Shown here piece by piece: positions 2-61,659 of a stretch of 64,000 nt of DNA. The stretch comes from Planctomycetota bacterium (GTDB lineage Bacteria; Planctomycetota; B15-G4; SIAN01): contig JANNXA010000022.1 of NCBI GenBank assembly GCA_031409275.1, positions 140,058 to 204,057 on the forward strand. The letters are read 5' to 3'. The position numbers and the translations under genes are program-made. The notes under the pieces are model-generated. The model was not told the origin of the DNA and made no database searches. It worked only from the letters and a program-made list of their open reading frames with translations. The stretch's first letter is position 1, and each line of letters begins with the position of its first letter.

Positions 2-1417
2 GACCCCCTGCTCTTCGATCATGACGGCGACCAGCTGCGCATCACCTTGCCGACCCCGCTTGCGCGCGGCGACCGGTTCGGAGTCGCCGTGTGGTACTCG
101 GGCCGACCGGTGCGCCAGGACGACTTCAACGGCTTCCAATGGGCGACGACCCCCGACGGTCAGCCGTGGATCGCGACCTCGTGCCAGACGATCGGCGAGC
201 ACACCTGGTGGCCGTGCAAGGCGGCCTACTACCATCCGGAGGACAAGCCGGAGCGGGTGGCCGTCAACGTGACGGTACCGACCCCGCTCGTCGCCGCGAG
301 CAACGGCCGTCTGATCGACGTCGAGCGCGGCGCCGGGGTCACGACGTGGCGCTGGCAGCTCGACGACTCGATCCCGAGCTACGCCATCGCCGTCGCGATC
401 GGGCCCTACGAAGTGATCGAGTCGGAGGTCGCGCTGCCCGGTCTCGCGGCGCCGCTGGCGCTGCGCTACTTCGTCCTGCCGCAGAGCGTCGCGAAGGCGA
501 AGAAGCAGTTCGCGCAGGTTCCCGAGTTGCTGCGGTTCTTCAGCGAGAAGTTCGGTCCCTTCCCATTCCCCGAAGCGAAGTTCGCGTTGGCCGAGACGCC
601 GATCTGGGGCATGGAGCACGCGACCGTGATCGCGTACGGAAACAGCTTCCCCGACGCGATCCGCGGCACCGGCGAAGTGGATCCCTACGAGCTGCGCAAC
701 AAGCTCTTCGACTACGTGCTCGTCCACGAGGCCGCGCACGAGTGGTGGGGCAACTCGGTCACGGCCGGCAGTTGGGGCGACTTCTGGCTGCACGAGGGAT
801 TCGCCACCTATGCCGAGGCGCTGTGGGTCGAGCACGTCCACGGCCTCGACGTGGCGCTCGATTTCATGCAGTCCAAGAAGGCGGGCGTCGCGGAGCTGGC
901 CACCGTCTATCGCCCGCGCCGCACCACCGCGGCGAGCGCCTATGACACGCAGATGTACGACAAGGGCGCCTGGCTCCTCCACATGCTGCGCTACGTGATG
1001 GGCGATGAGCCGTTCTTTGGCGCGCTGCGCGACTTCGGGACCGATCCGCGCTGGAAGCACTCGACCTGCAGCAGCGCCGATTTCCAGGCCGCGTGCGAAG
1101 TGCGTCACGGTTCCTCGTTGCGCAGCTTCTTCCAGCCATGGCTCTATGGGACGCGCTGGCCGAGCTTCACGGTCCGCAAGCCCAAGCTCGAGGGGCACAA
1201 GGCGACGTTGTCGGTCGAGTGCAAGAGCAGCGGACAGTTCCGCTACGAGCTGCCGCTCGACGTCGAGGCGACCTGCGAGGATGGGTCGCGCTTGCGCCAG
1301 CGCTTCACCGTCGTCACCGGCAGCAACAGCTTCGAGATGACCGCAGCCGCGCCGATCGTCTCGGTGCGCTATCCCGGTTTCCGCTGGCTCTTGTGCGACG
1401 TGCGCGAGGTGCCTTGA
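2..1417 (+). CDS. M1-family zinc aminopeptidase (aminopeptidase N-like), 5' end truncated by window edge
   Basis: Open frame from position 2 with no upstream stop. Gluzincin motif HEAAHEWWGNSVT plus downstream WLHEGFATY (HEXXH...E) and a GAMEN-like GMEHA segment. Stop TGA at 1415-1417. Confidence 0.85.
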   Translation, partial: DPLLFDHDGDQLRITLPTPLARGDRFGVAVWYSGRPVRQDDFNGFQWATTPDGQPWIATSCQTIGEHTWWPCKAAYYHPEDKPERVAVNVTVPTPLVAASNGRLIDVERGAGVTTWRWQLDDSIPSYAIAVAIGPYEVIESEVALPGLAAPLALRYFVLPQSVAKAKKQFAQVPELLRFFSEKFGPFPFPEAKFALAETPIWGMEHATVIAYGNSFPDAIRGTGEVDPYELRNKLFDYVLVHEAAHEWWGNSVTAGSWGDFWLHEGFATYAEALWVEHVHGLDVALDFMQSKKAGVAELATVYRPRRTTAASAYDTQMYDKGAWLLHMLRYVMGDEPFFGALRDFGTDPRWKHSTCSSADFQAACEVRHGSSLRSFFQPWLYGTRWPSFTVRKPKLEGHKATLSVECKSSGQFRYELPLDVEATCEDGSRLRQRFTVVTGSNSFEMTAAAPIVSVRYPGFRWLLCDVREVP

Positions 1418-1673: not shown

Positions 1674-3458
1674 TCAACGGATCTCGAAGTCGGGGCAGCT
1701 CGTGCCACCGCGCCGGCTGGCGCCGGTCAGGACCGTTCCGGTCGGCCCGTCCGGGCGCGCGCTGTAGAGCTCGAACCGTCCGAGCTCCCGTTCATCGGCC
1801 GCGTAGAGCAGCAGCTCGGCGTCATGCCAGCACAGCCGGCAGACATCGCCGCCGCTTGGTGCGAGGCTTCCCGAGACGCGCTGCAGCAGGGAGCCGTCGC
1901 ACAGCGCGGCGAACGCCTCGAAGACGCCGTCGACGTTCTGGTCGGCCACCCACGCGAGACGCAGGCTGTCGGGCGACCATTGGATCGCGGGATCGATCGC
2001 CGTGTAGGCCGGATTCTCCGCATCGGACGCGAACAGCACATCCGCATGCAGGTCGTTGCGGCTGATCAGGAACAGGTTCGATCCGTCGGCGCGCGCGCAG
2101 AGCAGGTCGTAGGTCTGCAACGAGATCTCATTGGCGATGTAGGCCAGCCGGGACGAGTCGGGCGCCCAGCGAAACCTCTCGACGTTCTGCCCGAGCAGCG
2201 GCAGCTCGGTGTTGACGCGCTCGTTCGACCGCGATCTTGCGAGGGGATCGGCGACGTAGAGCTCGACGATGCCGCGTCGATCGAGGTCGCCGCGGAACGC
2301 GACCCGTGAGGAGTCGGGAGCCCACTCGAAGGCATCGGGCTCGAGGTAGATCACGCCGCCGTCGCGATCGAGCGGCCGCTTCGAGATCGGGGTCGCGTCG
2401 ACGTCAGGATCGGTCGAGCGCGGATCGATGCTCCACAACTCCACCAGGTCGGCCTTGATCCCGTCCGTCGCGTAGACGAGGCGACTGCCGTCGGGGGCCC
2501 ATGCAAACCGAAGGTCGTCGGGATCGAGGTTGGCCGGGTCGAAGCGCGCCGAAAGACGGCGGTCGTCGCTGCCATCCGCGGCGACGATGCGCAGCTCCGA
2601 ACCGGCCGCGGCGCCGCTCGCTTGCGCCACGAGGAACGCGAGATGCCCCGCGAGGTCGCCCGCCGGCGCCCATCCGAACGGCAAGTAAGGGCGCTCGAAT
2701 TCGCGGTCCATCGGCAGTCCGGGCGCCGAGGCGAGCGCGGGAGCGATGCGAAGCGCGTTGCTTCCGTCGGGAGCGACCACGTAGAGATGGAAGTGGCCCG
2801 TGGCAGGGTCCCGGGTCGCGCAAGCGAGATGGCTCGAGTCGGGGTTCCACTCGAATGCGGCCCGCGTCGCGGCGAAGTCTCGGCTGAGCGGGAACGCGAC
2901 CGGTCCGGCCGCGTCGGGCGAGACCTGGACGAGGTCGGTGCCGTTCTCGCGGACGGTGAAGAGCTGGGGCACTCCGGTCGTCACCGCATCGGCGACGTAG
3001 GCGATTCGCGACGAGTCGGGCGCCCAGACGAAGTCGCGGACTCGCTGTCCATCGGCGAGGTCTGGATGCACCTTGAAGGCGGGCGTCGTCGTCCGCAGGT
3101 CGACCACCCACAACTCGTCGATGTTGGTGAAGACGCGCGCAGCGACGAACGCGAGCCGGTTGCGATCGGGGGAGATGCCGATGCGCTTGACGGTCCCGCC
3201 GCCGAGTTGCGTCGCCGACAGAGAGATCTGGCTCGATCCGTCGAGGACGACCGCGAACGCTTCCTTCGTCTGGTTGAAGCGCAGGTCGCTGGCGACGACG
3301 ACATCGACGGCGAGCTTCACGGTCGGCGAGGAGCCGCCGCCTTGTCCCGGTTTCGACGCCGCGGTGATCGCGCCGGCGCCGCAGGCCGTGAGCATTCCGG
3401 CGGCCGCCGCGGCGAGCGCCGCGCGGCTTCTGGTCGAGGCGTTCATCAAGGTGTCCAT
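1674..3458 (-). CDS. PD40/TolB-like beta-propeller repeat lipoprotein
   Basis: At least six repeats of the F/W-x-W-A/S-P-D-S/G-S-R-L/I-A-Y type (WAPDSSRIAYVAD, WNPDSSHLACAT, WAPDGSRLVYATDG, WAPDSSRVAFRGD, WAPDSSRLAYIANE, WSPDSLRLAWVAD). Lipobox-like signal MLTAC. Start chosen at MDTLMNAS (ATG 3458); the ORF extends to 3548, but that part is Arg-rich. Confidence 0.75.
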   Translation of the reverse strand: MDTLMNASTRSRAALAAAAAGMLTACGAGAITAASKPGQGGGSSPTVKLAVDVVVASDLRFNQTKEAFAVVLDGSSQISLSATQLGGGTVKRIGISPDRNRLAFVAARVFTNIDELWVVDLRTTTPAFKVHPDLADGQRVRDFVWAPDSSRIAYVADAVTTGVPQLFTVRENGTDLVQVSPDAAGPVAFPLSRDFAATRAAFEWNPDSSHLACATRDPATGHFHLYVVAPDGSNALRIAPALASAPGLPMDREFERPYLPFGWAPAGDLAGHLAFLVAQASGAAAGSELRIVAADGSDDRRLSARFDPANLDPDDLRFAWAPDGSRLVYATDGIKADLVELWSIDPRSTDPDVDATPISKRPLDRDGGVIYLEPDAFEWAPDSSRVAFRGDLDRRGIVELYVADPLARSRSNERVNTELPLLGQNVERFRWAPDSSRLAYIANEISLQTYDLLCARADGSNLFLISRNDLHADVLFASDAENPAYTAIDPAIQWSPDSLRLAWVADQNVDGVFEAFAALCDGSLLQRVSGSLAPSGGDVCRLCWHDAELLLYAADERELGRFELYSARPDGPTGTVLTGASRRGGTSCPDFEIR

Positions 3459-3514: not shown

Positions 3515-4291
3515 TCAGTCGCCGCCCGCTCCGGTGGGCGACTCCCACGCGCGGATCCGGGTTGCGACGCCATGCGCGGCGGTGGAGATGACCGCGTCGA
3601 GGATCAGTTCAGCGACCGCGTCAGGGTCGTCCTGGTCCATCGCGGAGACGAAGTGTGGCGGGATCAGGAGGCTCATCACGTACGGCAGCGGCGCTCCGCC
3701 GTTTCGATCGATGAAGTCGGACGTGATCGGCTCGTTGCCGACCTGGAACTTCCCGACGTTCCGATCGCTCCGCGCGACGCCTTCGAACAGCGCGATCTCG
3801 ATCTCGATCGGCGACGCCTGGTCGTAGTCATCGATGAAGAGCGAGGGGATCCCGACCAGCAACCACCCCACCGTGCCGGCGATCGCGCCACCCACCTTGC
3901 CGCTGCGCTCGGCCTCGCGCCGGATCACCTTCGCCACGATCGCGAGCTGCGGCGGAGGCTCCTGGTCCCAGGCGTAGTCGAGGTCGTTCGCGAAGGGCCG
4001 CGGCAGGAGCGCGACCGCCCCACGTCCGCATTCCTTCTCGATGGCCGCGTGAAGGCGAAGCGACAAGCGATCGTCGAGACACGGGGCGAGGATGGCCGCC
4101 GTCACGGCATCCTTCGTGGTCGGCGCAACCTCGCGCAGCTCCGACGCATCGACCCGGAACAGCGCGACGCGCGATCGGATCGCGGCCGGGTGGTCGGACT
4201 GCACCGCTTCGGCGCTCGACGACGATTGGCATGCCGCGAGAGTCGCGAGCAGCGCTACGAGAGCGAGCGGGCGCAACGAGAGGTTCGCCAT
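3515..4291 (-). CDS. lipoprotein of unknown function
   Basis: Start MANLSLRPLALVALLATLAAC (signal peptide plus lipobox Cys). ATG at 4291 lies 1 nt downstream of the upstream gene's stop codon. Acidic, non-Arg-rich composition. Confidence 0.6.
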   Translation of the reverse strand: MANLSLRPLALVALLATLAACQSSSSAEAVQSDHPAAIRSRVALFRVDASELREVAPTTKDAVTAAILAPCLDDRLSLRLHAAIEKECGRGAVALLPRPFANDLDYAWDQEPPPQLAIVAKVIRREAERSGKVGGAIAGTVGWLLVGIPSLFIDDYDQASPIEIEIALFEGVARSDRNVGKFQVGNEPITSDFIDRNGGAPLPYVMSLLIPPHFVSAMDQDDPDAVAELILDAVISTAAHGVATRIRAWESPTGAGGD

Positions 4292-4292
4292 G

Positions 4293-6983
4293 TCAGCGGC
4301 TCCTCGCGAGCCGGTAGATCGGACGGAAGCCACGCGACGCCCCCGGACCATCTTGGAAGAACTCCTGGTTCGCGATCTGGCAACGCGGCGCAGCGCAGTG
4401 GCTGCTGCCGCCGCAGAAGGGCCGGATCACCGTCGTCGCGTCGCTCGACCCCAAGAGTCGGCTCCACTCCTCGTCCTCGCGCAGGCACGCCTCCCAGACG
4501 TTGCCTTGGACGTCGAAGAGCCCCAGAGCGTTCGCGGCGCGCGTCCTCGCCGGCCGCACCTCGCCCTCGGAGTTGTCCTTGAACCATGCCGTTTCCGCGA
4601 GCGCGGCGGGCGTTGAAGCAGGGTCCTGCGGAGCGCCACCGAGCGCGAGGTAGCGCCACTCGGCGCTGTAGGGCAGCTCGAGCCCCATGTCGGCGCAGAA
4701 GCGGACGATGTCGCGTCCGCTGACCTGGACCACCGGCAGCGAACCGTCTCGCGGCGCCGAATCCTCGAGCGGGCGCCAACGCTGCCAGGCGTCGTTCGTG
4801 CATTCGGTCTCCGCGACCAGCAGGACGAAGGGCGAGCTGGTTTCGGGCGCTGTCGTCGCGAAGCGCGGGATCGTGTTCACCACCGCGAGCGGCAGCTCGA
4901 CTTCGACGAAGCGCAGGCCGCTCTTCCGGTGGATCCAGACGCGGCGATCGCTCGCCGTTCGCCCGGCCGGATCGAACGACGCTGCCAGCTCGGCAAGACG
5001 GCTCGCGCTCTCGTTCGCTGCCACGATCTCCGCCGTCGGCGTGGTGGCGGCGGGAGTGGCCACGTCGGGCGCGGCGCACTCGGGCGCCTTCGAATCGACG
5101 TCGACTTCGGGTGTCGTGGTCGCCGCCACGATGGGCTCGGTGACGGGTTCGGATGGCTCGGGAATCGGTGCGGGGTTCCTCGCTCCCGCATCCGCCACGA
5201 GCGGCGCCGCCGCCGCGACGGGCGCCTTCACCTCACGCGCGCCGAGAAGAGTTCCGTCGAGTCTCCGGAAGGTGACCGTCGCTCGGTCGACGCCGGATGG
5301 CAGATCGAGCTCCGCGACGAAGCGTCCGTTCGGCAGCACGGTGCACTGCGGAGGCACTCCGGTCGAAGAGTCGATCTGCAGGAGGTCGAGTCGTTGCGGC
5401 GAGAGCGTCGCTCGAATCGAAGCGCGACGATTCGTCGCTTCCAGCGGGCCGTTGTCCTCGAAGCTCAGTTCGACGGCGGCAGCCTCGGCAACGAAGTGGG
5501 TGATCCGGGCCGCGGTGGCATTCCAATCGTCCATCGCCGGCGAGGCGAAGACGTCCGTCTTGAACTCGCCGAGCGTCGCTTCCCACGCCGATCGCGAGGC
5601 GAGGAACTGGCGCGCACGGGCGTAACCGCTGGCGCCGGAGAGCGGCCAAGGCACGAGCGGCGCGTTGCGGATCAGTGGCTGGATCGCCGCGCGTCGTTGC
5701 GCTTCATTCCTTCGCGGGGCCTCGACCACGGGCGGCAGCTCGATGCGCCCCTCCAGCGACTTGGCCAGCGCCGGCGGTGGCGCGATCGGCGAGGCTTCGT
5801 CCGTGTGGCGCGGGCGATGAGTCGCACTCCAGGCGTTGAGCGCCACGATCGCGCCGATCACTCCGATCAGGAGCATCCAACTCTTGACGCGTGTCGTCGT
5901 CGGTGCCGGCAGCACGGCGCCCGGGCCGCTCAACGCTGCTGCGACCAGGGCGCGCTCCTCGACTCGCGCCGCGGCCACGTCGGGTGGCTGCGATGCCGAC
6001 GCGACGGCCGCCGTTTCGGGGACGACCGATTCGGGGGCGAGCATCGGCGTGTCGCGACGCTCGGCCGCTTCGGCCGGGATCGCGGTCGCTTCAAGAAGCG
6101 GCGGCTCGGCGGGCAGCTCCGCCGCGGGCAGCGTCGTCGAGGCGACCGGCGGCGGCTCGAGCGCAGGAGTCGGAAGGATCGCCTTCTGCATGGCGCCGTG
6201 CGGCTCGGCGACGCATGCGTTGCGGATCGCGTTCGCGAAGGCGCGGCAACTCGGATCGCGTCGCGCGAGATCAGGGTCGAACGCGCGCATGACGGCGGTC
6301 GCGACGGCTTCGGAAAGGTCAGGGCGCCATTCGCGGATCGGCCGCGCGGTCGACGCGCTCGCCCTCGGCGAATGGGGCAATTGGCCAGTGAGCGCCTGGT
6401 AGACGACGACGGCCAGTGCATGCCGATCGTCGACCAGGTTGGGTTCCGGCCAGGCGTCGATCGCAGTCGCCATGCCCACATCGGACAGGAAGGCGTTGCC
6501 TCCGGTGTCGAAGAGGATGTTGGCTGGATTCACGGCGCCATGGTGGACGCCGCGCGCATGGCAGAAGTCGAGTGCCGCCGCGATCTCCGTCAACCAGCCG
6601 ACGACGCTCATCGGCGCGGGGAGGCGGCGACGATCGTCGCCCGGCATCCGATCGGCGAGCGAGCCGCCGCTCAGGAAGGGCATCACGAAGAAGGGCGAAT
6701 CGCGGTGCTGGCCGACGTCGAGGATGCGGACGATGGCGCGGTGCTCGAGACGATTGACGTTTCGCACCTCGCGTTCGAATCGCTCGCGCGGTTCGGGATC
6801 GTCGACGAGTTCGCGATGCGGGAACTTCAGCGCGACGAGCGTACCGAGGCGGCGGTCCTCTGCCCGATAGACCGTCGACCGGTTGCCGCGCCCGAGCTCG
6901 CCGGTCACGACGTAACGGTCGTTGATCCACTCTCCGACGACTGCCGATGGAGGAACGCTAGGCACAATCCACCTCTTGCACAC
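4293..6983 (-). CDS. Ser/Thr protein kinase-like (predicted pseudokinase) - Pro/Ala-rich linker - single TM - C-terminal FGE-sulfatase (SUMF1-like) domain
   Basis: N-terminal Hanks kinase fold: GELGRGNRSTVY, VALKF lysine, ERFEREV. The catalytic loop reads HHGAVNPANILF instead of HRDLKPxN, and DVG replaces DFG. TM helix LLIGVIGAIVALNAW. The C-terminus carries GLFDVQGNVWEAC...RPFCGGSSHCAAPRC...RGFRPIY, matching the FGE-sulfatase domain. Confidence 0.8.
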   Translation of the reverse strand: MCKRWIVPSVPPSAVVGEWINDRYVVTGELGRGNRSTVYRAEDRRLGTLVALKFPHRELVDDPEPRERFEREVRNVNRLEHRAIVRILDVGQHRDSPFFVMPFLSGGSLADRMPGDDRRRLPAPMSVVGWLTEIAAALDFCHARGVHHGAVNPANILFDTGGNAFLSDVGMATAIDAWPEPNLVDDRHALAVVVYQALTGQLPHSPRASASTARPIREWRPDLSEAVATAVMRAFDPDLARRDPSCRAFANAIRNACVAEPHGAMQKAILPTPALEPPPVASTTLPAAELPAEPPLLEATAIPAEAAERRDTPMLAPESVVPETAAVASASQPPDVAAARVEERALVAAALSGPGAVLPAPTTTRVKSWMLLIGVIGAIVALNAWSATHRPRHTDEASPIAPPPALAKSLEGRIELPPVVEAPRRNEAQRRAAIQPLIRNAPLVPWPLSGASGYARARQFLASRSAWEATLGEFKTDVFASPAMDDWNATAARITHFVAEAAAVELSFEDNGPLEATNRRASIRATLSPQRLDLLQIDSSTGVPPQCTVLPNGRFVAELDLPSGVDRATVTFRRLDGTLLGAREVKAPVAAAAPLVADAGARNPAPIPEPSEPVTEPIVAATTTPEVDVDSKAPECAAPDVATPAATTPTAEIVAANESASRLAELAASFDPAGRTASDRRVWIHRKSGLRFVEVELPLAVVNTIPRFATTAPETSSPFVLLVAETECTNDAWQRWRPLEDSAPRDGSLPVVQVSGRDIVRFCADMGLELPYSAEWRYLALGGAPQDPASTPAALAETAWFKDNSEGEVRPARTRAANALGLFDVQGNVWEACLREDEEWSRLLGSSDATTVIRPFCGGSSHCAAPRCQIANQEFFQDGPGASRGFRPIYRLARSR

Positions 6984-7058: not shown

Positions 7059-7622
7059 TCAGCTGCGATTCTTTTTCTCTTCGAGAAGGGCGCCACGTCC
7101 CGCGGCATCCCCCCTCGCGCCGGAGCTCTCCGGCGTGCCGTTGCTCTGCCGCTGCGAACCGGTCGTGGGATCGGCGCCGACGCGCAGCAACACCAATCGA
7201 GGCGTGCCGTCGACCACGATCTCGCGAGCTTCGACCATCTCGATCGCCAGGGGACCGAGCAGGTCGGCCGCTCCGTGCAGCGAGTCGGAGAAACGACGCG
7301 CGATCAGGACGATGCGCGGATCCGTTCCGAACGTGAGCCCCTTCTGCGGGAAGAGGCGATCGAGGAGGTGCCACATGCGCCGGACATCGGCGAGGACACA
7401 GACGCTTCGGCCAAGCAGCGCCTCGGCTCCGCCGCTGCCTTCGCCGAGGACCACGACGGGCCGCGCACTGCGGTCGACCATCAGCAGATCGAGCACGACG
7501 CCCGGTGTCAGCCGCAGAGCGACGTCGATCAGTTCGAGCCCGGCCTCGAGCAAGGTGGGGTTCTCGACCAGCGGCTGGAGCGACAGCGGCGCCTCGAGGT
7601 TCTGCAGTGCCGGGTTCATCAT
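7059..7622 (-). CDS. hypothetical cytoplasmic protein (possible Roadblock/LC7-like or regulatory domain)
   Basis: Same strand as and immediately upstream of the kinase-like gene. Start MMNPALQNLE. Balanced composition (L/V/E/D), unlike the overlapping Arg-rich frames. No confident family assignment. Confidence 0.4.
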   Translation of the reverse strand: MMNPALQNLEAPLSLQPLVENPTLLEAGLELIDVALRLTPGVVLDLLMVDRSARPVVVLGEGSGGAEALLGRSVCVLADVRRMWHLLDRLFPQKGLTFGTDPRIVLIARRFSDSLHGAADLLGPLAIEMVEAREIVVDGTPRLVLLRVGADPTTGSQRQSNGTPESSGARGDAAGRGALLEEKKNRS

Positions 7623-36576: not shown

Positions 36577-38067
36577 TCACGGCTGCTTGCGCAGTTCCTT
36601 GTCCTTCAGGCCCGGATGGTCGGCGGGGATGCGCGTGGCGCGGAACAGCGCATGCGGCGGTGCGGGCTGTCCCTCACCGGGGTCGGCGTCGCCGAACGGA
36701 TGGAGGTACTCCCACACCATCGTGCCGTCTGCCTTCACCTCGAAGACGCGACCGCTGGCGCCTTCGCAGATCAGCGTGTGGCCGTTGCGCAACCGCTGCG
36801 CGCCGGAGATGAAGTTCGAGAAGAAGTCGCTCTTGGTGGGCGCCGTGTAGCTCCAGACCGGCGCCGCCGGTCCGGCCGCGACGAGTGGCTCGAGCAGGAG
36901 ACCGCCATCCTTCTGGCGCGGCAACTCGAGCTCGATCACGGCCGAGTAGTTGCCGTCGGGTCGACCCGCGCCGTTGTTGTAGATCAACAGGTGTCCGGCG
37001 CCGGGGAAGCCGGACGGGATGAAGCGCGCGTTGTGCTGAAAGAAGAGCGTCTGGTCGCTCTTGCCGCCGGCGCCGTAGTTCTTCGGATTCCCCCAACGCC
37101 ACAGCAGGTCGCCGCCCTTGCCGCTGAGGCCGCCTTCGCTGCCGGCCGCTTCGTCGGAGGTCGTGCTGTGGTCGAGGATCCAGACCTCGCCTAGATGCGG
37201 CGAACTCAGCACGATCTGGTCGTGCTCGACGTCGTAGTGGATCGCGTTGGTATGCAGCCAGTCCGCCTGCAGCTCGCCGGCGGCCGGCTTGGCGTCGATG
37301 TAGCCGAGCTTCTGCAACTCGGCGATGTCGGCGTCGCTGGGCAGCTCTCGGCGCAAGTCGCAGTTGAGGTCGAGTCGCTCGGGATGACTTGCGACATCGC
37401 CGTAGTTGGCCGCATCGGGATCGACATCCTGGATCAGGTGATCCCATGCGTGCCATTGCCAGATGATCTCGGCGCCATCCTTCCCGCTTGGCTCGATCTC
37501 AAAGACGCAGTCGCTCCAGATGCCGTTGAGCCCGACGTGCGCGGGATGGCGACCGGCGGCGATCGCCTCGGAGCGCGTCTTGTACTCCCATGCGATGAAG
37601 AGGATCGTCCCATCGGGGGTGAGCGCGATGTCGTGGTGCTGCAGCGTCTCTTCGCTGGCGAACTTCCAATCCCACACGACGCTGCCGTCCCAATCGAGTT
37701 CCTGCAGCCGACCGCAGGCACCTCCTGCCTTGAAGCGCTGGATGCCCGGCTCCTTGCTGCAGCGCAGCAGATGGCCGTTGTCGAGCAGGTACTCGCTGCC
37801 TGGCATGAAGCCGGTCTTCCACTCGTGCGCCAGGTTCCCTTCGAGATCGACAAGGCGAATCGTCTTGCTGCGCAGCGGCGCGATCAGCGTGTAGCCGGGA
37901 GTGGCCTCCGCCGTGCGCAGCGCGAGTCCGCGCGGGCGACTCGCCGGCGGCTCGCCGGGCGGGGCGCCGCCGGGTGGCGGTGGCGGCGCGCCTTGCGCCA
38001 CGACGACGCTCGCCAAGGTCGAGAGGGTCGCGCAGAGGTGCAGCAGTCGGGTGGCGATCGAAGTCAA
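36577..38067 (-). CDS. arylsulfotransferase (ASST) family beta-propeller protein, secreted
   Basis: TTG 38067 start (GGAG 9 nt upstream) gives the signal peptide MTSIATRLLHLCATLSTLASVVVAQG. Body rich in ASST-like segments (LLDNGHLL, IIWQWHAWDHL, LHTNAIHYD, FFQHNARFIPSG). Confidence 0.75.
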   Translation of the reverse strand: MTSIATRLLHLCATLSTLASVVVAQGAPPPPPGGAPPGEPPASRPRGLALRTAEATPGYTLIAPLRSKTIRLVDLEGNLAHEWKTGFMPGSEYLLDNGHLLRCSKEPGIQRFKAGGACGRLQELDWDGSVVWDWKFASEETLQHHDIALTPDGTILFIAWEYKTRSEAIAAGRHPAHVGLNGIWSDCVFEIEPSGKDGAEIIWQWHAWDHLIQDVDPDAANYGDVASHPERLDLNCDLRRELPSDADIAELQKLGYIDAKPAAGELQADWLHTNAIHYDVEHDQIVLSSPHLGEVWILDHSTTSDEAAGSEGGLSGKGGDLLWRWGNPKNYGAGGKSDQTLFFQHNARFIPSGFPGAGHLLIYNNGAGRPDGNYSAVIELELPRQKDGGLLLEPLVAAGPAAPVWSYTAPTKSDFFSNFISGAQRLRNGHTLICEGASGRVFEVKADGTMVWEYLHPFGDADPGEGQPAPPHALFRATRIPADHPGLKDKELRKQP

Positions 38068-38239
38068 CTTGGAACTCCAGCGAAGGGCACGGTCACTCCG
38101 GCCATCTTGTCGAGGCGCCCACGCGCGGTGAAGGGCGCGCTCGAACCCGACTTCATCCGCGAGTCCCGCTACGATCTCGCGCTCCCGTCGATCTTGGCCT
38201 CCGCGGAGCTTCACGGTGCCGGCACGTTCCACTTGTCGA
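38068..38239. promoter_or_regulatory. divergent promoter region between the arylsulfotransferase gene and the ChaN-like fusion gene
   Basis: An about 170-nt non-coding gap flanked by divergent starts. Confidence 0.35.
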
Positions 38240-40369
38240 ATGGCCCTGCTCCTCGCACTCGGCGCCACCAGTTGCGTCGGATCGAGCGGTCAGCGCCAGA
38301 AGAGGCTCGCGCCCGGCAGCGCGCTCCTCCACCAGGCCTCGCGCCTCTTCGACGGAAAGAGCGGCGTCGAGGTCGGTTGGGAAGCGGCGTTGTCGCGCCT
38401 CGCCGAAGCGGACGTCGTGTTCCTCGGCGAGACGCATCTCGACCGCCTCACCCACGACGCCGAACTCGAGTTCCTGCGCGAACTCACCGAGCGTCGCGAC
38501 GGGCAGACCGCGCTCGCGCTCGAGATGTTCGAGCGCGACGTGCAGCCGTTCCTCGACGAGTACCGGGCCGGCCGCATCGACGAGCGCCTGTTCCTCCAGC
38601 ATTCGCGGCCGTGGGGCAACTACGCCACCGACTACCGGCCGCTGATCGAGTTCTGCAAGGCCGAGCAGCTGCCGATCATCGCGTCGAACCTGCCCGCCGA
38701 GCTGCGCCGCAAGCTCGGCCGCGGTGGTGCTGAAGCGCTCGCGGCGTTGACTCCCGACGAGCGCGCGCTGGTGCCGGAGCCGCTGTTCGAGAACCGTCCG
38801 GACTACTGGAAGCGCGTCGACCACGTCACGCGCGGTCACGCCGCCATGGGGATCGTGCCCGCCGAAAGCCGCCTCTTCGACGGGCAGAACCTCTGGGACA
38901 ACACGATGGGCGACTCGATCGCGCGCGCGCGCGCGGCCGACCCCGAGCGCCAGGTGATCCACGTGAACGGCGGCTTCCACAGCGACTATGGCGACGGCAC
39001 CGTCTGGCAGCTCCTGCAGCGCGCGCCCGCCACCGCCGTCGCGACCGTTCAGATCGTCGCCACCACCGACCTCGCCGACGTCCGCGTCGACGTCGCGACG
39101 CCGCGCGCCGATTTCGTCCTCTTCGTCGAGGCGCGCGCGAAGGCGGCCGAGGACGGTGTGGCCGCGGTGAATGTCGCGCGTGAGCACGGATGGCGCTTGT
39201 CGCGACCGGCCGGCGCGAGCGCCCCGGTCCCGTTGCTGATCTGGCTTTGCGACGACGGTCAGGAGAGCGCCGCCGCCCAGAAGCTGTGGCAGCCGGCGAT
39301 CGGCGACGGCGCCGCGCTGCTCACGCTCGATCCCTCGTTCCCCTACCTCGGCGCCGATGGCAGCAAGCACGGCCGCTGGTTCTTCCCGGGATCTGCCGAC
39401 AGCGGCGGCGGGCTCGCGACGAGCGCGCTCGACCGGATCTTCGAGGTGGTCGCGCGTGAGGACCTCGCGGCCGGTCTCTCGCTCGATCGCACACGCATCG
39501 TCATCGCTGGAGAAGGCGCCGGCGCGACGATGGCGCTGCATGCGGCGCGCTACCTCGGCGACGAAGCTTTCTCGACACTCGCCTTCGAACCGCGCGCGAA
39601 GAGCGAACTCGCCGAGATGATCGCCCCGCTCTCGCTGTCGGCGGGTCGGACCACCCGAAAGGTGGCGATCCACTCCAGCGAGGCGGAGGCGGCGAGCTGG
39701 CGTGAGCTCACCGCGGGCGATGGCGAGTTGCGCCTCACGACGGAAGTCGTCGCGCAGCCCGACGCACCGGCCGCGCGCGATGCCGCGCAGGTTGACGCAG
39801 TGCGCGCGGCGCTCGGCCTCGCCGCCGCTCCCGAGAGCCGCGCGGCCGCGGCCGTGATCGAGCAGGCACCCGTGCATCCGGCCGGCGAACTCGTCGCGCG
39901 GCAGCTCGCGCGCCGCGTGCGCGCCGCGCAGCTCGCGCAGCCCCCTCCCATGGCGATCACCGCCGCCGCGTTCGCCGATGGGCAGCGCCTGCCGCGGTCG
40001 AGCGGCGCGTTCGGTGGCACCACGATCGTGGTCCTGCCGGCCGACGTTGCCGATGGCGAGTGGGCCGCCTGGAAGGCGCTCGAATCACCCGATGTGCTGC
40101 AGGCGAAGAGCCGCTTCCATCGGCTGCGGATCGCGCGCGGAGACGGGGACGAGTCGCCGCGCGCGGTGATCGAGAAACTGCGCGCCGAGAATCCGCAGCG
40201 GCGCGACTTCCTGCTGGTGCCGGCCGAATTCTGCGTCGACGACGCCGCGCTCGAGCGGCTGACTGCGGCCATCGGCGCGCTCGCCGACGAACTCCATCTC
40301 GAGCTGCTGCCGGGGCTCGGCGCACTGCTGCCGGTCGGTCCGCCGGCTCCGGCTCCCGCGCCGCATTGA
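38240..40369 (+). CDS. multidomain lipoprotein: ChaN/Tiki-like (DUF399) haem-binding-type domain + esterase-like alpha/beta-hydrolase-type domain + C-terminal domain
   Basis: Lipobox MALLLALGATSC. ChaN-like core ADVVFLGETHLDRLTHDAELEFLRELTE...ALEMFERDVQPFLDEY. The middle segment LLIWLCDDGQ...RIVIAGEGAGATMALHAA resembles the phospholipase/carboxylesterase fold but has Gly where the nucleophile Ser is expected. Confidence 0.65.
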   Translation: MALLLALGATSCVGSSGQRQKRLAPGSALLHQASRLFDGKSGVEVGWEAALSRLAEADVVFLGETHLDRLTHDAELEFLRELTERRDGQTALALEMFERDVQPFLDEYRAGRIDERLFLQHSRPWGNYATDYRPLIEFCKAEQLPIIASNLPAELRRKLGRGGAEALAALTPDERALVPEPLFENRPDYWKRVDHVTRGHAAMGIVPAESRLFDGQNLWDNTMGDSIARARAADPERQVIHVNGGFHSDYGDGTVWQLLQRAPATAVATVQIVATTDLADVRVDVATPRADFVLFVEARAKAAEDGVAAVNVAREHGWRLSRPAGASAPVPLLIWLCDDGQESAAAQKLWQPAIGDGAALLTLDPSFPYLGADGSKHGRWFFPGSADSGGGLATSALDRIFEVVAREDLAAGLSLDRTRIVIAGEGAGATMALHAARYLGDEAFSTLAFEPRAKSELAEMIAPLSLSAGRTTRKVAIHSSEAEAASWRELTAGDGELRLTTEVVAQPDAPAARDAAQVDAVRAALGLAAAPESRAAAAVIEQAPVHPAGELVARQLARRVRAAQLAQPPPMAITAAAFADGQRLPRSSGAFGGTTIVVLPADVADGEWAAWKALESPDVLQAKSRFHRLRIARGDGDESPRAVIEKLRAENPQRRDFLLVPAEFCVDDAALERLTAAIGALADELHLELLPGLGALLPVGPPAPAPAPH

Positions 40370-40384
40370 GTCGCGCGCGCGACG

Positions 40385-41692
40385 TCAGGCCAACAGCTCG
40401 CGGACGATCGCGCCCTCGGGATCGACCAGCGTCGCCGGACGCCGCGACGTCGCCTGGAAGCGCTTCGTTCCGTCGATCCGCAGCAGATGGGCCAAGGTGG
40501 CGAACAGGTCTGGAACGGTGACCGGCCGCGCGACGATGGACTCTCCACGATCATCCGTGCTGCCCACCACGGTGCCCGCCTTCACTCCGGCACCGGCGAG
40601 CAGCGCGCAGTAGTTGTGTGGCCAGTGGTCGCGGCCGCGGCGCGCGCTGATGGCCGGCGTCCGGCCGAACTCGCCCATGCAGACCACCAGGGTCTCCGAC
40701 AACAGCCCGCGCTGTTCGAGGTCGTCAAGCAACGTCGAGAGCGCCGGATCGAGCTCGCGGCAGAGCGCCTCCGTCTTCGGGAAGTTGTCGATGTGAGTGT
40801 CCCACCCGTCGAAGTGGATCTCGACGGCGCTGACCCCCTCCTCGAGCAGGCGGCGCGCGAGCAGAGCGCCCTGACCAACCGTCGAGGGGCCGTACGCCTC
40901 GCGCAAGCGATCGGGCTCGGCGTCGAGGTTGAAGGCGCGACTGCGAACGCTCTCCATCAACCGGCGGGCACGCCGCTGCTGCTCGCGGTTGCTGTTCACC
41001 TCGACCTCGGCGCCGCGGCGCGCGTAGTCGGCGTCGAGCAGTTCACGCAGCGAATCGCGCCGATCGGTGCGAATCGCGTCGAGCGGGCGCGCCGCGGCGA
41101 GGTTCGCGACCGGGCTGCCGGGGCGGGCCACGAGGAACGGGGCGTGCGCTACTCCGAGGTAACCAGCCGAGCCGGGCGCGCCGTTGATCTGCACGAAGCT
41201 CGGCAGCTCGGCGGCGGGGTCGCCTAGTTCGTGTGAGACGACCGAGCCGAAGGTCGGAAAGGCGACGCTGGGGTTGGGCGTGTAGCCGGTGTGCAGCAGC
41301 AGCCGCGCGCGGGCGTGGCTGCCCTCCTTGGAGTGGAGGCTGCGGATCACCGCCAGTCGATCCGCACGTTCGCGCAGCTGCGGCAGGTGCTCGCTGAAGC
41401 TCCAGCCGGCGCGATCGGTGGGAAGCGCGCGAAACGGCCCGCCATTCACGGTGCCGGGCTTGGGGTCGAACGTGTCGAGCTGGCTCGGGCCGCCTTCCAG
41501 CCAGATCAGGATCAAGCGCCGCGGCGTGGGCGCGTCGCCGAGCGCTGCTTCTTGAGCGCACGCGTGGCGCTGCAGCAATCCGAGCAGTCCGGAGCCGATC
41601 GATGCGGCACCGATTCCGCCGGCGAGCTGCGCCAGCAGCGCACGCCGAGTCAGCTGTCCGGTCCAACGCGCGGATGGCAGCGAGGAGCTCAT
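40385..41692 (-). CDS. DUF1501 domain protein (sulfatase/AlkP-superfamily fold, Tat signal)
   Basis: Start MSSSLPSARWTGQLTRRALLAQLAGGIGAASIG (twin-Arg-like signal). Characteristic DUF1501 segments (FDTFDPKPG, HSKEGSHARARLLLHTGY, MGEFGRTP, RDHWPH). ATGA overlap with the DUF1553 gene stop. Confidence 0.85.
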   Translation of the reverse strand: MSSSLPSARWTGQLTRRALLAQLAGGIGAASIGSGLLGLLQRHACAQEAALGDAPTPRRLILIWLEGGPSQLDTFDPKPGTVNGGPFRALPTDRAGWSFSEHLPQLRERADRLAVIRSLHSKEGSHARARLLLHTGYTPNPSVAFPTFGSVVSHELGDPAAELPSFVQINGAPGSAGYLGVAHAPFLVARPGSPVANLAAARPLDAIRTDRRDSLRELLDADYARRGAEVEVNSNREQQRRARRLMESVRSRAFNLDAEPDRLREAYGPSTVGQGALLARRLLEEGVSAVEIHFDGWDTHIDNFPKTEALCRELDPALSTLLDDLEQRGLLSETLVVCMGEFGRTPAISARRGRDHWPHNYCALLAGAGVKAGTVVGSTDDRGESIVARPVTVPDLFATLAHLLRIDGTKRFQATSRRPATLVDPEGAIVRELLA

Positions 41693-43554
41693 GGATTGGT
41701 GTGGAACTCCGCGCTGTTCACCAGGGCCCAGTAGAGATCGTCGGCTGAGGCGCGCGGATGGGCGGCATCGAGCGCCGCCACCAACGCGCGCGCTTCCTCG
41801 GGCTGCGGAGGTCGCGACAACGTGGCGAGGAACCACGGCGTGATCCGTTCGACCTCGCTGTGGCGCGCATCGAACAGCGCGTGCAGGGAGGCATCGTCAC
41901 GCAAGGCGGCAGGAATGACCGCGGCGTCGCCGTTGCGCAGCAGCAACGCCAGCGGGATGTTGACCTCCAGCGTGCGATCGTTGGCGTCGGCGCGGCCGGG
42001 CGAGCAGCGCTCGAGTTCGCGCAGCAGCTGGGCGCGCTGCTCGTCGAGGTGCTCCGCGGCGATGTCCGCGTTCCCGAGCCGAAGCACGGTGTTGGCGAGC
42101 TGCTCTGGCGTGAAGCTGCGGCGCGGATGGGCGGCGAACCAACGTTCGCTGCGTGCGCGCGCCTCGGAGTCGGCGCCAGACGCCGCACCGAGCGCGTAGG
42201 CGCGCGTGCGTGCCACCACGCGATAGAGCAGGCGAACGTCGCCGCCTTGTTCTGCGAGCGCCGCCGCGAGCGCAGCGTGCAGCTCCGGCAGGATTCGATC
42301 GGAGCCATCCGCGAGGTCATCGACCGGATCGACGAGTCCGTGGCCGAGCAGGAGCGAGACGATGCGATTGGACTGCGCCAACGTGAACCAGCGGTTGCCT
42401 GGCGCGATGATCCATTCGGCGAGCGCCGCGCGACGCGACTGTCCGCGCTGCGCTTCGTACGGGGCGTCATCGAGATGCGCCGCGACGCCAAACTTCTCGC
42501 GCCGTTCGAGGTAGCGATCGAGCAGGTCGCGTGCGTCGCCAGGGAGTCGTCCGCGCAGCGACTCGAGCGCTTCACCGTCGGCGAGGAAGGCGAGGATCGG
42601 CCGCTCGCCCCCGACGCTCTCGCGCAGCAAGGCACGCAATTGCGCGACTGCCGCCAACTCGGCGGGCGTCCGGCGCTGCGCGGGGCCCTCGGCGCCCGCG
42701 CGCATCGACGGCTTGTCCATCGAGGAGGCGCCCGCCTCGAGTTCCCTCAGTCGATCGGCGAGGTCCCATTCGGGCGAACGGTCGATGACGCGGAAGCCCG
42801 GGCCGCCGATCTCGGAGAGCAGGCCGTGGTCCCCGCGCATCTCGACGAAGAACCCTACGAAACGGTTGAACTGCTCCCGCGTCCAGTGGTCGTAGGGATG
42901 GTCGTGGCACTGGGCGCACTGGATCTGGAGGCCGAGGAACGCGCGTGCAGAGACGCCAGCAAGCGTCTCGATCGAATCGCGAAAGCTGATCGGGAACGCG
43001 AAGGCCCCGGGCGTGCGGGCCGCGCCGGACGCGGCGATCAGCTCGGTCGTGAGCTGTGGGAAGGTGATGCCCTCGCGGAATCGCTCGGCCAGCCATGGCC
43101 TCAGCCAGCGCGTGGTCTTCTCGGCGTCCTTGCCGGCCTCGCCCACCAGCAGTTCGTTCCATTGGAACGAGAGCTCATCGGCGAATCGCGGGTCGGTGAG
43201 TTGCGCCTCGATCTCTTCGGCGCGTCGCGTCGCCGCCGGACGCGCCAGGAACCGCGCGATCTCCGCCGGTGTCGGCGCGCAGCCGCGCAAGTCCAGGCTC
43301 AGGCGACGCAGCCACGTCGAGTCGTCGAGCGGCGTCGCGGCGACGAGCCCCTGCTCCTCCCACGCCGCGGCCACCATCGCGTCGAACCGCGTCACGAGCG
43401 CGTCGACCGCGGTCGACGGCGGCGCCGCGTCGGGCGCAAGCGATGGCGACGCCGTCGCGACGGTCAACGCGAGGGACACCGCGGCGGCAAGGGCAGAAAG
43501 ACGACTAGGCCAGGCACGCAACCGAACCACTCCTGCAACGACGAGGCGCTGCAA
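41689..43554 (-). CDS. DUF1549/DUF1553 (PSCyt2/PSD1) domain protein
   Basis: Hallmarks RRLSLDLRGCAPTPAEIARF and the cytochrome-like GLQIQCAQCHDHPYDHWTREQF. Universally paired with DUF1501, as here. Confidence 0.85.
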   Translation of the reverse strand: MQRLVVAGVVRLRAWPSRLSALAAAVSLALTVATASPSLAPDAAPPSTAVDALVTRFDAMVAAAWEEQGLVAATPLDDSTWLRRLSLDLRGCAPTPAEIARFLARPAATRRAEEIEAQLTDPRFADELSFQWNELLVGEAGKDAEKTTRWLRPWLAERFREGITFPQLTTELIAASGAARTPGAFAFPISFRDSIETLAGVSARAFLGLQIQCAQCHDHPYDHWTREQFNRFVGFFVEMRGDHGLLSEIGGPGFRVIDRSPEWDLADRLRELEAGASSMDKPSMRAGAEGPAQRRTPAELAAVAQLRALLRESVGGERPILAFLADGEALESLRGRLPGDARDLLDRYLERREKFGVAAHLDDAPYEAQRGQSRRAALAEWIIAPGNRWFTLAQSNRIVSLLLGHGLVDPVDDLADGSDRILPELHAALAAALAEQGGDVRLLYRVVARTRAYALGAASGADSEARARSERWFAAHPRRSFTPEQLANTVLRLGNADIAAEHLDEQRAQLLRELERCSPGRADANDRTLEVNIPLALLLRNGDAAVIPAALRDDASLHALFDARHSEVERITPWFLATLSRPPQPEEARALVAALDAAHPRASADDLYWALVNSAEFHTNP

Positions 43555-43612
43555 TAGACGCTCCCGCCGCCGCCGTCAACCTTCGCGCGACGGCGCTGCT
43601 AGGATCCGCGGA

Positions 43613-45049
43613 ATGAGACTCCCTTCGGCGCCTCCGTCGTGGCTCGCGGCTGCCGCCATCGCATTCCACCAGGAAGCGATACCGGTGCCGCCTCCTGCTG
43701 CACCGCAGCGACTCGTCGTCGTGACCCTCGATACGGTCCGCGTCGATCGCCTCGGCTGCTACGGCTACTTCCGCGACACGACTCCGAACCTCGACCGCTT
43801 CGCGACGGATGCGCTGCGCTTCACACGCTGCCAGGTGCCGATCGCGCAGACGACTCCGAGCCACACCTCGTTGTTCACCGGCGTCGGCCCCTTCGAGCAT
43901 GGCGTCACTTCGAACCACGCGCGGCGCTCCAACGAGGAACCGTCCGAGATCGGGCTCGAGACTTCGGCGACGTTGCGCACGCTCGCCGAGTCGTTCCAGC
44001 AGCGCGGCTTCGCGACGGGGGGCTTCGTCACGGCGACGCCGGTCAAGCGTTTCACCGGCCTGGCAAAAGGCTTCGACGAATGGAGCGAGCCGGAGCGCGG
44101 TCGCCGCATCGGACACGAGGCGATCCGCGACGCGTTGGCCTTCCTCGACCGTCATAAAGAGGAGTCGATGTTCGTCTGGGTCCATCTCTACGACGCGCAT
44201 GAACCCTACACCGCGCCGACCCCGCCAAAGCAGTTCCTGTCGCGCTACTCGAGCGAGCCGCGCCTCCTCGATTGGCTCGCCGCGCGCAACTTCCCGAGCC
44301 GATCGGCTGATCTCGAGGCGCACGGTCGCGATGTGATCTCGACACAGAACGACTACGACGGCGCGCTGCGCTTCATGGACCAGCAACTCGGTGTGCTACT
44401 CACCCGGCTCGAAACCGAGCCGCTCTACAGCTCCACCACCGTCGTGTTGGTCGCCGACCATGGAACGGCACTTGGCCAGCACGATCACGTCGGTCACGGG
44501 ATCTGCTGGGAAGAGCAGCTGCAGATCCCGCTTCTCGTTCGAGTTCCCGGACTCGCGCCAGGCGTGGTCGACGAGCCGCTCTCGACGCTCGATCTCTGGC
44601 CCACTCTGTCGGCGCTGGTGCCGGGACTCCTCGACGCGGCATGGCTGCCGCAGTGCCGCGGTGCCGACGTGCTGTCACCCGACCACACCCCGGCGCCGCG
44701 GTTTGCGATTTCCGGTCGTGACTCGAGCCTCGCTTCCGTGAGAGCGGGGCGCTTCAAGCTGATCCGCGACGAGCGCCGCGCGACGCAGCTCTTCGATCTC
44801 GACGCCGATCCCAACGAAACCAAGGATGTCGCCGTCGACCACCCCGACGTCGTGCAGCGGCTCAGCGCGCTGGTCGCGGACGAGGTGGCGCGCCAGAAGC
44901 GTGCACACGCGCTGCACCGCAGCCCGTCGGGCGAGTCGGGCAGCGTGGATCCGAAGCTCCTCGAGGAGCTGCGGGAGCTCGGCTACGTAGGCGCCGACGC
45001 GGGCAGTGCGGACGAAGAGGGCGGCGGCGATCGGCGCCGTCCACGCTGA
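43613..45049 (+). CDS. sulfatase-like alkaline-phosphatase-superfamily enzyme with Thr/His in place of the fGly-motif Cys/Arg
   Basis: Start MRLPSAPPSW. The sulfatase N-terminus VVVTLDTVRVDRLGCYGY is followed by RFTRCQVPIAQTTPSHTSLFTG where arylsulfatases have LCTPSRAALLTG. Downstream motifs WVHLYDAHEPY and VVLVADHGTALGQHDHVGHG. Confidence 0.85.
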   Translation: MRLPSAPPSWLAAAAIAFHQEAIPVPPPAAPQRLVVVTLDTVRVDRLGCYGYFRDTTPNLDRFATDALRFTRCQVPIAQTTPSHTSLFTGVGPFEHGVTSNHARRSNEEPSEIGLETSATLRTLAESFQQRGFATGGFVTATPVKRFTGLAKGFDEWSEPERGRRIGHEAIRDALAFLDRHKEESMFVWVHLYDAHEPYTAPTPPKQFLSRYSSEPRLLDWLAARNFPSRSADLEAHGRDVISTQNDYDGALRFMDQQLGVLLTRLETEPLYSSTTVVLVADHGTALGQHDHVGHGICWEEQLQIPLLVRVPGLAPGVVDEPLSTLDLWPTLSALVPGLLDAAWLPQCRGADVLSPDHTPAPRFAISGRDSSLASVRAGRFKLIRDERRATQLFDLDADPNETKDVAVDHPDVVQRLSALVADEVARQKRAHALHRSPSGESGSVDPKLLEELRELGYVGADAGSADEEGGGDRRRPR

Positions 45050-47245: not shown

Positions 47246-47373
47246 GGCGAACTCTTCGGGGTGTTCGTGGCGGTGGAGCGAAGCACGGCAGAACCATAGC
47301 GCGGCGAGCTCATCGGTCGGGTGCGAGCGGGGGCCGCTATCCTGCCCCGCTTCCCGTTTCGGAGCCTGTTGCC
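47246..47373. promoter_or_regulatory. divergent promoter region upstream of the MoxR-Bat operon
   Basis: An about 128-nt gap between a minus-strand ATG (47245) and the MoxR GTG (47374). Contains the GGAG RBS of MoxR. Confidence 0.35.
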
Positions 47374-48363: not shown

Positions 48364-48371
48364 TGCACCTG

Positions 48372-61634: not shown

Positions 61635-61659
61635 CGAGAGCGGTCGCAAGCGCGGCGGC

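Follow-up and report, generated by a model that had tools for sequence, protein, structure and literature searches.

A planctomycetal receptor with a predicted pseudokinase domain and an FGE-fold ectodomain, encoded in a conserved four-gene cassette

Few bacterial pseudokinases are known, most of them from Actinobacteria. Receptor-like proteins that join a kinase to a formylglycine-generating enzyme (FGE) fold are a well-known class. In the Planctomycetota, the SUMF1 domain is reportedly the third most common partner of serine/threonine kinases (STKs), in single-pass proteins that expose it to the periplasm and occur in almost all species (PMC11032199), and a kinase-transmembrane-FGE-sulfatase architecture has also been catalogued in the Proteobacteria (family Proteo1; 10.1101/2025.01.12.632604). 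We analyzed a protein of this kind encoded at 4293-6983 on the minus strand of a 64,000-nucleotide stretch of a Planctomycetota bacterium (assembly GCA_031409275.1, contig JANNXA010000022.1, positions 140,058 to 204,057), referred to below as the window. An earlier sequence-only reading of this DNA had singled out as noteworthy the pairing of a degenerate kinase with a possibly intact FGE Cys pair, in the same window as a sulfatase homolog without the formylglycine residue. The layout by itself is not remarkable, being common in the phylum, and the window protein is a modest variation on a common type.

The window protein shares with the planctomycetal STK-SUMF1 receptors an N-terminal, cytoplasmic Hanks-type kinase fold, one transmembrane helix, a C-terminal, extracytoplasmic PF03781 domain and a planctomycete host. 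It departs from them in a kinase domain without the HRD Asp, the catalytic-loop Lys and most of the activation segment, and in an additional helical hairpin and Ig-like module and a conserved four-gene cassette. What is specific here is a small orthologous family with the added module, a fixed cassette, and a subclade in which a pseudokinase is maintained. The explanation that we favor, as a probable one, is that the protein is a single-pass receptor (STK-transmembrane helix-periplasmic SUMF1/FGE fold) whose kinase became a pseudokinase and whose ectodomain would serve for binding rather than catalysis.

Catalytic residues of the kinase-like domain

The kinase-like domain spans residues 17-265 (6189-6935, minus strand; residues are numbered throughout on the 896-codon open reading frame, or ORF). 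We set its register by HMMER alignment to the solved kinase domains of PknB, PknA, StkP and PknE. The stretch ...G-V-H-H148-G149-A150-V-N152-P-A-N155-I-L-F-D aligns on ...i-v-H-R-D-i-K-p-q-N-i-l-i-d, a placement of the catalytic loop (H148 to N155, 6519-6542, minus strand) seen both with PknB-like PDB chains and with orthologs that read HRDVKPSN. The HRD Arg is thus replaced by Gly149, the HRD Asp, which is the catalytic base, by Ala150, and the loop Lys by Asn152, and the loop Asn is retained as Asn155. The sequence-only reading had assigned Gly to the catalytic Asp and Val to the Lys, one position out of register, and had asked whether such a slip might hide an intact loop; the slip was real, but no canonical HRD Asp appears in any alignment register of the window protein, and the loop stands as dead.

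Other landmarks are kept, as that reading had also proposed. The VAIK motif reads VALK with the β3 Lys at position 53, the αC Glu is E72, and DFG is D168-V-G, in which the metal-binding Asp168 is retained and the Phe is replaced by Val. The 19 residues between Lys53 and E72 match the spacing of the K30-E49 pair in a published alignment of bacterial STKs (10.1101/2025.01.12.632604). The Gly-rich loop, GRGNRS, has lost its third Gly. Two further defects lie beyond the earlier description: from the Gly of the DxG motif to the αF Asp186 the window protein has 15 residues where the active orthologs have 39 (about 24 missing), and the position of the APE Glu is occupied by Asn. This truncated activation segment, with D168-V169-G170 (6429-6482, minus strand), was placed by alignment to the orthologs and to PknI of M. 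tuberculosis, where "WPEPNL" of the window aligns with "YPAPEL". The C-lobe is still recognizable; PknI is its top solved match (E 1.4e-7), in an alignment that reaches the end of the domain.

Among the features expected of a competent Hanks-type kinase, the domain therefore has the β3 Lys/αC Glu pair and the DFG Asp, and lacks the HRD Asp and the activation segment with its APE motif. Pseudokinases have been defined by the loss of at least one of the VAIK Lys, HRD Asp and DFG Asp (10.1101/2025.01.12.632604). Since the domain has a kinase fold (Pfam Pkinase, E 1.5e-21) and Ala at the HRD Asp position, it is by its sequence a pseudokinase in the usual sense. This prediction of the sequence-only reading is now better founded than when it was made, given the additional loss of the APE Glu, the deletion in the activation segment and the contrast with intact orthologs.

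PknI, a single-pass membrane protein and the top solved match for the C-lobe (PDB 5M06-5M09, 5XKA), has the same Lys-to-Asn change in the catalytic loop (HRDVNPAN, against HGAVNPAN in the window protein) and a similarly short activation segment (DFGIASQPSYPAPEL in PknI, DVGMATAIDAWPEPNL in the window). Unlike the window protein, PknI comes from an actinobacterium, lacks an ectodomain of FGE fold, and still has the Asp of HRD, the Phe of DFG and the Glu of APE. A second parallel is the ActPs3 family, the pseudokinase domain of MviN (MurJ), which is likewise a membrane-tethered Hanks fold that lacks triad residues, has a deleted or attenuated activation loop, and is presumed to act as a scaffold (10.1101/2025.01.12.632604); our comparisons with PknI and MviN draw on PDB titles, alignments and this STK atlas preprint. 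In all seven pseudokinase families of the atlas the VAIK Lys is substituted, in a share of members that varies by family from 34 to 100% (10.1101/2025.01.12.632604). The window protein, in contrast, keeps this Lys and has lost the HRD Asp instead; it also differs in lineage and in its fused domains, and it belongs to a single orthologous family in which active and dead forms coexist.

The whole ORF (4293-6983, stop codon 4293-4295) is uninterrupted over 896 codons counted from the first GTG. The database copy of the protein (P0001) and all orthologs begin six codons later, at VPS..., so that annotation and orthologs alike back the GTG at 6965 as the favored start, for a protein of 890 residues. 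The third-position GC pattern is coding-like, in DNA of 70% GC. The identical protein was found in one NCBI assembly and in two independent Logan assemblies, and its odd features are therefore not assembly artefacts.

Pfam Pkinase matches residues 24-176 (profile positions 1-149 of 263 only) and Pfam FGE-sulfatase (PF03781) matches residues 724-887 (E 7.8e-14, profile positions 63-252 of 255). Between these lie, by composition, a Pro/Ala-rich linker (residues 267-368, 5880-6185), a single predicted transmembrane helix (residues 369-387, WMLLIGVIGAIVALNAWSA, 5823-5879), which is the sole Kyte-Doolittle peak above 1.6, the family-specific module described below (residues 438-589), and a Pro/Ala/Thr-rich linker (residues 590-679, 4947-5216), all on the minus strand. 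Both linkers are 15-17% Pro and 24-25% Ala. The protein has no N-terminal signal sequence and one helix, and the kinase-like domain with the first linker should therefore be cytoplasmic and residues 388-896 extracytoplasmic. The Pfam matches and the Kyte-Doolittle scan thus confirm the order originally proposed, of kinase-like domain, Pro/Ala-rich spacer, one helix and extracytoplasmic FGE domain.

Active and degenerate members of one family

We searched 5.8 billion proteins with the full-length protein by a word-indexed method. Only seven full-length relatives were found (P0001-P0007), after which the score falls from 543 to 128 bits, at the level of generic kinases; a search with the ectodomain alone added P0121. 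With an ectodomain profile, HMMER was run exhaustively over 1.84 billion cluster representatives. Three of these cover the whole ectodomain (P0121, P0001 and P0005), as does the distant P0129, and about 70,000 further matches were limited to the FGE part. The ectodomain is thus common to about nine clusters, every named one of which comes from metagenome-assembled genomes (MAGs) of Planctomycetota or Planctomycetes. Among 185,579 species genomes there were only three loci, all titled Planctomycetota MAGs.

The state of the VAIK, HRD and DFG motifs across orthologs, the check that the sequence-only reading had proposed, divides this family. Of the roughly nine clusters, five have a fully canonical kinase and four a degenerate one. 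The canonical motifs VAIK, HRDVKPSN, DFG and GTPLYMAPE are found in P0002-P0005, L010 and P0129, the last a metagenome protein. The degenerate members are the window protein, P0006, P0007 and P0121. The losses differ within this second set. The last three read VV(I/V)AF, in which the Lys is lost, HGDVSPES, in which the loop Asn is also gone, and DLG, with an activation segment of 18 residues; their αC Glu is replaced as well, by Gln in P0006 and P0007 and, as judged by eye, by Thr in P0121. The window protein and the P0006 group nevertheless have derived states in common, namely CHARGV-HG, ILFD(T/S)GGNA and the short activation segment. In neighbor-joining trees rooted on P0129, the four degenerate proteins group together with bootstrap values of 100% for the kinase domain and 98% for all domains. 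A single origin of degeneration, followed by further decay, would be the most parsimonious account of these sequences.

An M1-family peptidase gene lies convergent to the last gene of the cassette in the window (47-1417, plus strand) and at L005, L012 and L013, and is missing from the loci with an active kinase. The shared synteny speaks for the relatedness of the genomes that carry the degenerate clade.

We compared divergence between domains to assess constraint on the dead domain. The kinase domain is the most conserved part of the active members, and this order is reversed in the degenerate ones. P0002 and P0003, both active, are 74% identical in the kinase domain and 49-50% in the ectodomain; for P0006 and P0121, both degenerate, the values are 62% and 67-72%. 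Between the window protein and P0002 they are 56% and 48-56%. The kinase domain of the window protein is therefore relaxed relative to active ones, yet its rate of change does not exceed that of the ectodomain of the same protein.

The ratio of nonsynonymous to synonymous substitution rates (dN/dS, Nei-Gojobori) was computed for the closest degenerate pair, P0006/P0007, and an active pair, P0004/P0005; codon bias inflates the absolute values, and the comparison is an internal one. In the kinase domain the ratio is 0.20 in both pairs. The degenerate pair gives 0.15 in the mid-domain and 0.26 in the FGE domain, where the active pair gives 0.47 and 0.44, and the linkers give 0.42-0.44 in the degenerate pair and 0.63 and 1.23 in the active one. 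We conclude that the pseudokinase fold is under maintenance, at least in the sister lineage of P0006 and P0007. With intact and dead versions of a kinase in one conserved operon, and the dead domain under purifying selection, the family offers a clean comparative system, and opens to comparison the question of what role a bacterial receptor kinase has once phosphotransfer is lost.

The ectodomain and the role of the receptor

Residues 438-589 (5217-5672, minus strand) form a module that, in the ectodomain profile search, was confined to this receptor family, and that is tandemly duplicated in P0129. An AlphaFold2 (AF2) model built from eight sequences (pLDDT 93.8) shows a two-helix hairpin followed by a seven-strand Ig-like β-sandwich. 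Foldseek neighbors of the model are Ig-like, filamin and LdtMt2 BIg domains, with E values near 1e-3.

The FGE-sulfatase-fold domain that follows (residues 680-896, 4296-4946, minus strand) is C-type-lectin-like and short, at about 217 residues. Its top solved relative in sequence is TvpA of Treponema denticola (2Y3C; E 6e-10 with the single sequence, 3e-42 with a profile), a non-enzymatic, ligand-binding protein with the same fold and the same FC...C pair of cysteines. True FGE chains in the PDB match the profile at 1e-21 to 1e-25, and the lipoprotein PorK/GldK of the type IX secretion system (T9SS) ring was also matched. With the aerobic FGEs (human SUMF1; S. coelicolor, 2Q17; T. curvata, 6S07) the domain shares the fold and the GNVWE, GGS and GFR motifs; it differs from them in its fusion to a receptor, a reduced N-terminal subdomain, a shorter loop and, as a family, the lack of a conserved C-x4-C.

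TvpA is a variable protein of a diversity-generating retroelement (DGR), and we considered whether the window domain might be a DGR target as well. No template-repeat/variable-repeat pair was found in the window, where no repeat of at least 40 nt anywhere in the 64 kb involves 4293-4500, and neither the ORFs that we compared with Pfam nor the tables of called genes showed a reverse transcriptase. We therefore rejected this candidate; unlike TvpA, the domain is not DGR-diversified.

The sequence-only reading had noted a Cys pair near the position of the FGE catalytic cysteines, and such a pair, C863-x4-C868, does stand directly after GGS. The loop reads C857-GGS-S-H-C863-AAPR-C868 in the window protein (4380-4415, minus strand), L-GGS-C-N-C-SGER-C in P0002, L-GGS-C-(N/S)-S-SAER-C in P0003-P0005, G-GGS-C-H-T-A(P/A)(A/T)R-C in P0006, P0007 and P0121, and R-GGG-Y-R-N-LLTM-F, with no Cys at all, in P0129. 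C868 is thus invariant in the close family, and C857 and C863 are lineage-specific: seven of the nine members have Ser, Thr or Asn at position 863. The corresponding loop of S. coelicolor FGE is GGS-Y-L-C-H-D-S-Y-C-N-R-Y-R-V-A-A-R. In a profile alignment to this enzyme, only two residues fall on its first catalytic Cys, namely Cys863 of the window protein and the equivalent in P0002. The second catalytic Cys of the enzyme is part of "SYC", in an insertion absent from the receptor family, and C868 aligns two residues before the R-x-A-A-R segment. C868 covaries with C763, in the "FC" that precedes LELPxxAEW: P0122, P0124 and TvpA have both residues, and P0123 has neither. This is the pattern expected for a structural disulfide, one that presumably resembles Cys235-Cys346 of human FGE.

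The PF03781 fold is thus present, and the catalytic, Cu-binding C-x4-C pair after GGS is not conserved. The conserved function of the domain does not lie in a feature that seven of nine orthologs lack; from these alignments the domain would be a binding module, and synthesis of formylglycine (fGly) by it is unlikely. Of the two roles offered originally, a sensor that uses the FGE fold as a ligand-binding domain fits the evidence, and fGly maturation does not, because the Cys pair is unconserved, the loop with the second Cys is absent and C868 behaves as a disulfide partner. The distinction matters for annotation. One ortholog bears the NCBI name "SUMF1/EgtB/PvdO family nonheme iron enzyme", and a C-x4-C that arises by chance in a single sequence can hint at an FGE activity for which the family, taken together, gives no support.

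In the receptor that we favor, the hairpin, the Ig-like domain and the non-enzymatic FGE fold would together bind a ligand or partner in the envelope or periplasm, among which the lipoproteins encoded by the two downstream genes of the cassette (C and D) may be counted. The signal would cross the membrane by oligomerization or conformational change. In the active orthologs it would drive autophosphorylation of the activation loop; in the degenerate clade, the kinase fold might serve without catalysis, as a scaffold or an allosteric partner, for another kinase or for the NucS-like product of gene A. Because Lys53, Glu72, Asn155 and Asp168 are kept, the pseudokinase of the window protein may still bind nucleotide.

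We weighed three other explanations against this one. The kinase-like domain could be vestigial, a neutral cytoplasmic spacer on its way to loss, with only the anchor and the ectodomain still functional alongside lipoproteins C and D. The lower kinase identity of the window-P0002 pair than of the P0002-P0003 pair at comparable ectodomain divergence speaks for this, as does the loss of different catalytic residues in the window lineage and the P0006 group, which is expected once catalytic constraint is released. However, the kinase domain of P0006/P0007 has a dN/dS as low as the structured ectodomains and well under the linkers, the domain is full-length and intact in frame, with a recognizable C-lobe, in all four degenerate members, and the window protein retains Lys53, Glu72, Asn155 and Asp168; we consider the vestigial explanation unlikely. 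The same four residues, with their capacity to bind ATP and metal, are what would recommend non-canonical catalysis, whether as an ATPase, as a nucleotidyl transferase or in an atypical form of phosphotransfer. Binding of ATP, or catalysis of other reactions, occurs in some proteins that are classed as pseudokinases. Such activity has also been raised for bacterial families (10.1101/2025.01.12.632604). The sister proteins P0006, P0007 and P0121, though, are under purifying selection after losing the VAIK Lys, the αC Glu and the loop Asn, and the conserved function of the clade therefore needs none of these; in the window protein, moreover, the Gly-rich loop has another residue in place of its third Gly, and the activation/P+1 segment that binds protein substrates is deleted. 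Catalysis of this kind strikes us as improbable.

That the C-terminal domain is a working FGE, anchored by the pseudokinase and maturing periplasmic sulfatases, is the least credible of the alternatives, and we give it almost no weight. Its appeal lies in the fold and in the spacing of GGS-S-H-C863-A-A-P-R-C868, which without gaps equals that of GGS-Y-L-C-H-D-S-Y-C in the S. coelicolor enzyme. Against it stand the variation at C863 and the loop of P0129, the HMMER placement of the second catalytic Cys in an insertion foreign to the family, the disulfide-like covariation of C868, a GGS-to-GFR segment four residues shorter than in FGE, the small domain with its partial Pfam match, and the binding function of TvpA. 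No sulfatase gene is present in any orthologous neighborhood that we read, and the sole sulfatase-family gene of the window lies 36 kb away with Thr at the fGly position.

Several observations count against the pseudokinase receptor itself. The window protein itself has no close relative, and purifying selection on its own pseudokinase is deduced from the sister lineage and from identity ratios. For a ligand, and for a part played by genes A, C and D, the case comes from gene order. Strictly, non-canonical nucleotide chemistry is compatible with a missing HRD Asp. The degenerate grouping has a bootstrap of only 46% from the ectodomain alone, and long-branch attraction of fast-evolving kinase domains, with two independent losses, is possible. 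Finally, the ungapped alignment anchored on GGS sets C863 and C868 exactly on the C-x4-C of FGE, the gap placement of the hidden Markov model (HMM) in so short a loop is uncertain, and for the sequence of the window protein taken by itself that placement is ambiguous.

The cassette and other genes of the window

The receptor gene is the second of four in the order A, kinase-FGE, C, D, all in the same orientation, and this order holds in all seven readable loci: the window, L003 (P0002), L004 (P0005), L005 (P0006), L012 (P0007) and L013 (P0121), and L009 by inspection of its ORFs. The cassette is intact with active and dead kinases alike. Its outer flanks vary between loci, save for the convergent M1 peptidase of the degenerate-clade loci. 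At the P0129 locus, gene tables list genes for proteins of 261 and 753 residues downstream and no gene A upstream.

Gene A (7059-7622, minus strand) encodes a predicted cytoplasmic protein of 187 residues with a NucS-like PD-(D/E)xK fold, which was recognized by fold comparison only; neither gene A nor gene C has a match in Pfam (E up to 10), NCBIfam or PDB profiles. By eye, the canonical E-x-K position of the gene A product is L59-G60-E61. Orthologs of gene A (about 190 residues) are 57-65% identical. Its wider family has 53 clusters, in which longer paralogs adjoin a ComEA-like HHH_3 gene, another conserved context without a kinase. Gene C (3515-4291, minus strand) encodes a putative lipoprotein of 258 residues (...LAAC) with an internal Gly-rich hydrophobic segment (VGGAIAGTVGWLLVGIPSLF) and no family match; its orthologs (about 250 residues) are 55-63% identical. 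Across loci gene C starts 1-2 nt past the stop codon of the kinase gene, 1 nt in the window, where the two are translationally coupled. Gene D (1674-3458, minus strand) encodes a putative lipoprotein of 594 residues, with a lipobox-like N-terminus and a PD40 (TolB-like) β-propeller.

The presence of a kinase beside a nuclease-fold gene led us to consider anti-phage defense. PADLOC, run on the cassette, returned generic matches to the kinase N-lobe only (PD-T4-6, mad6) and nothing for A, C or D, and leaves this idea unsupported. A more tentative suggestion, which we regard as doubtful, is that the cassette is a previously undescribed planctomycetal module for signaling from envelope to cytoplasm, in one clade of which kinase catalysis would be dispensable and output would pass by protein contact to the NucS-like protein or a partner kinase. 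If this were true, active and dead orthologous bacterial receptor kinases would form a natural pair within the same operon.

The sulfatase-family gene, which matches Pfam Sulfatase (3.9e-38), is on the plus strand at about 43607-45049. The sequence-only reading had connected an fGly-less sulfatase homolog in the window with the FGE domain; the homolog exists, and has Thr where fGly would form and His in place of Arg (...QTTPSHTSLFTG), but the functional link does not hold. We rejected it because the gene is on the opposite strand at 36 kb, is absent from every orthologous locus and has Thr in place of the Cys or Ser that forms fGly. The encoded protein, of the alkaline-phosphatase superfamily, has the nucleophile motif T-T-P-S-H instead of C/S-x-P-x-R; it is weakly like arylsulfatases and choline sulfatases, and more distantly like phosphoethanolamine transferases. 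Rather than a sulfatase, this protein may be a hydrolase or transferase with a Thr nucleophile.

Elsewhere in the window, an arylsulfotransferase (ASST) homolog is encoded at 36577-38268 (minus strand), and a PSCyt2/PSD1 plus DUF1501 pair, a hallmark of Planctomycetota, at 40385-43554 (minus strand). Genes for a MoxR-type AAA+ ATPase, VWA proteins and a BatD-like protein, resembling Bat/aerotolerance genes, occupy 47236-54451 (plus strand); L003 has a comparable MoxR-DUF58-VWA cluster at 3-8 kb upstream of P0002, possibly by coincidence. Two paralogous FG-GAP/ASPIC-UnbV repeat proteins are encoded at 56504-58486 and 59391-61649 (both minus strand), and account for the largest direct-repeat families of the window, D1 and D2, with units of about 47 nt.

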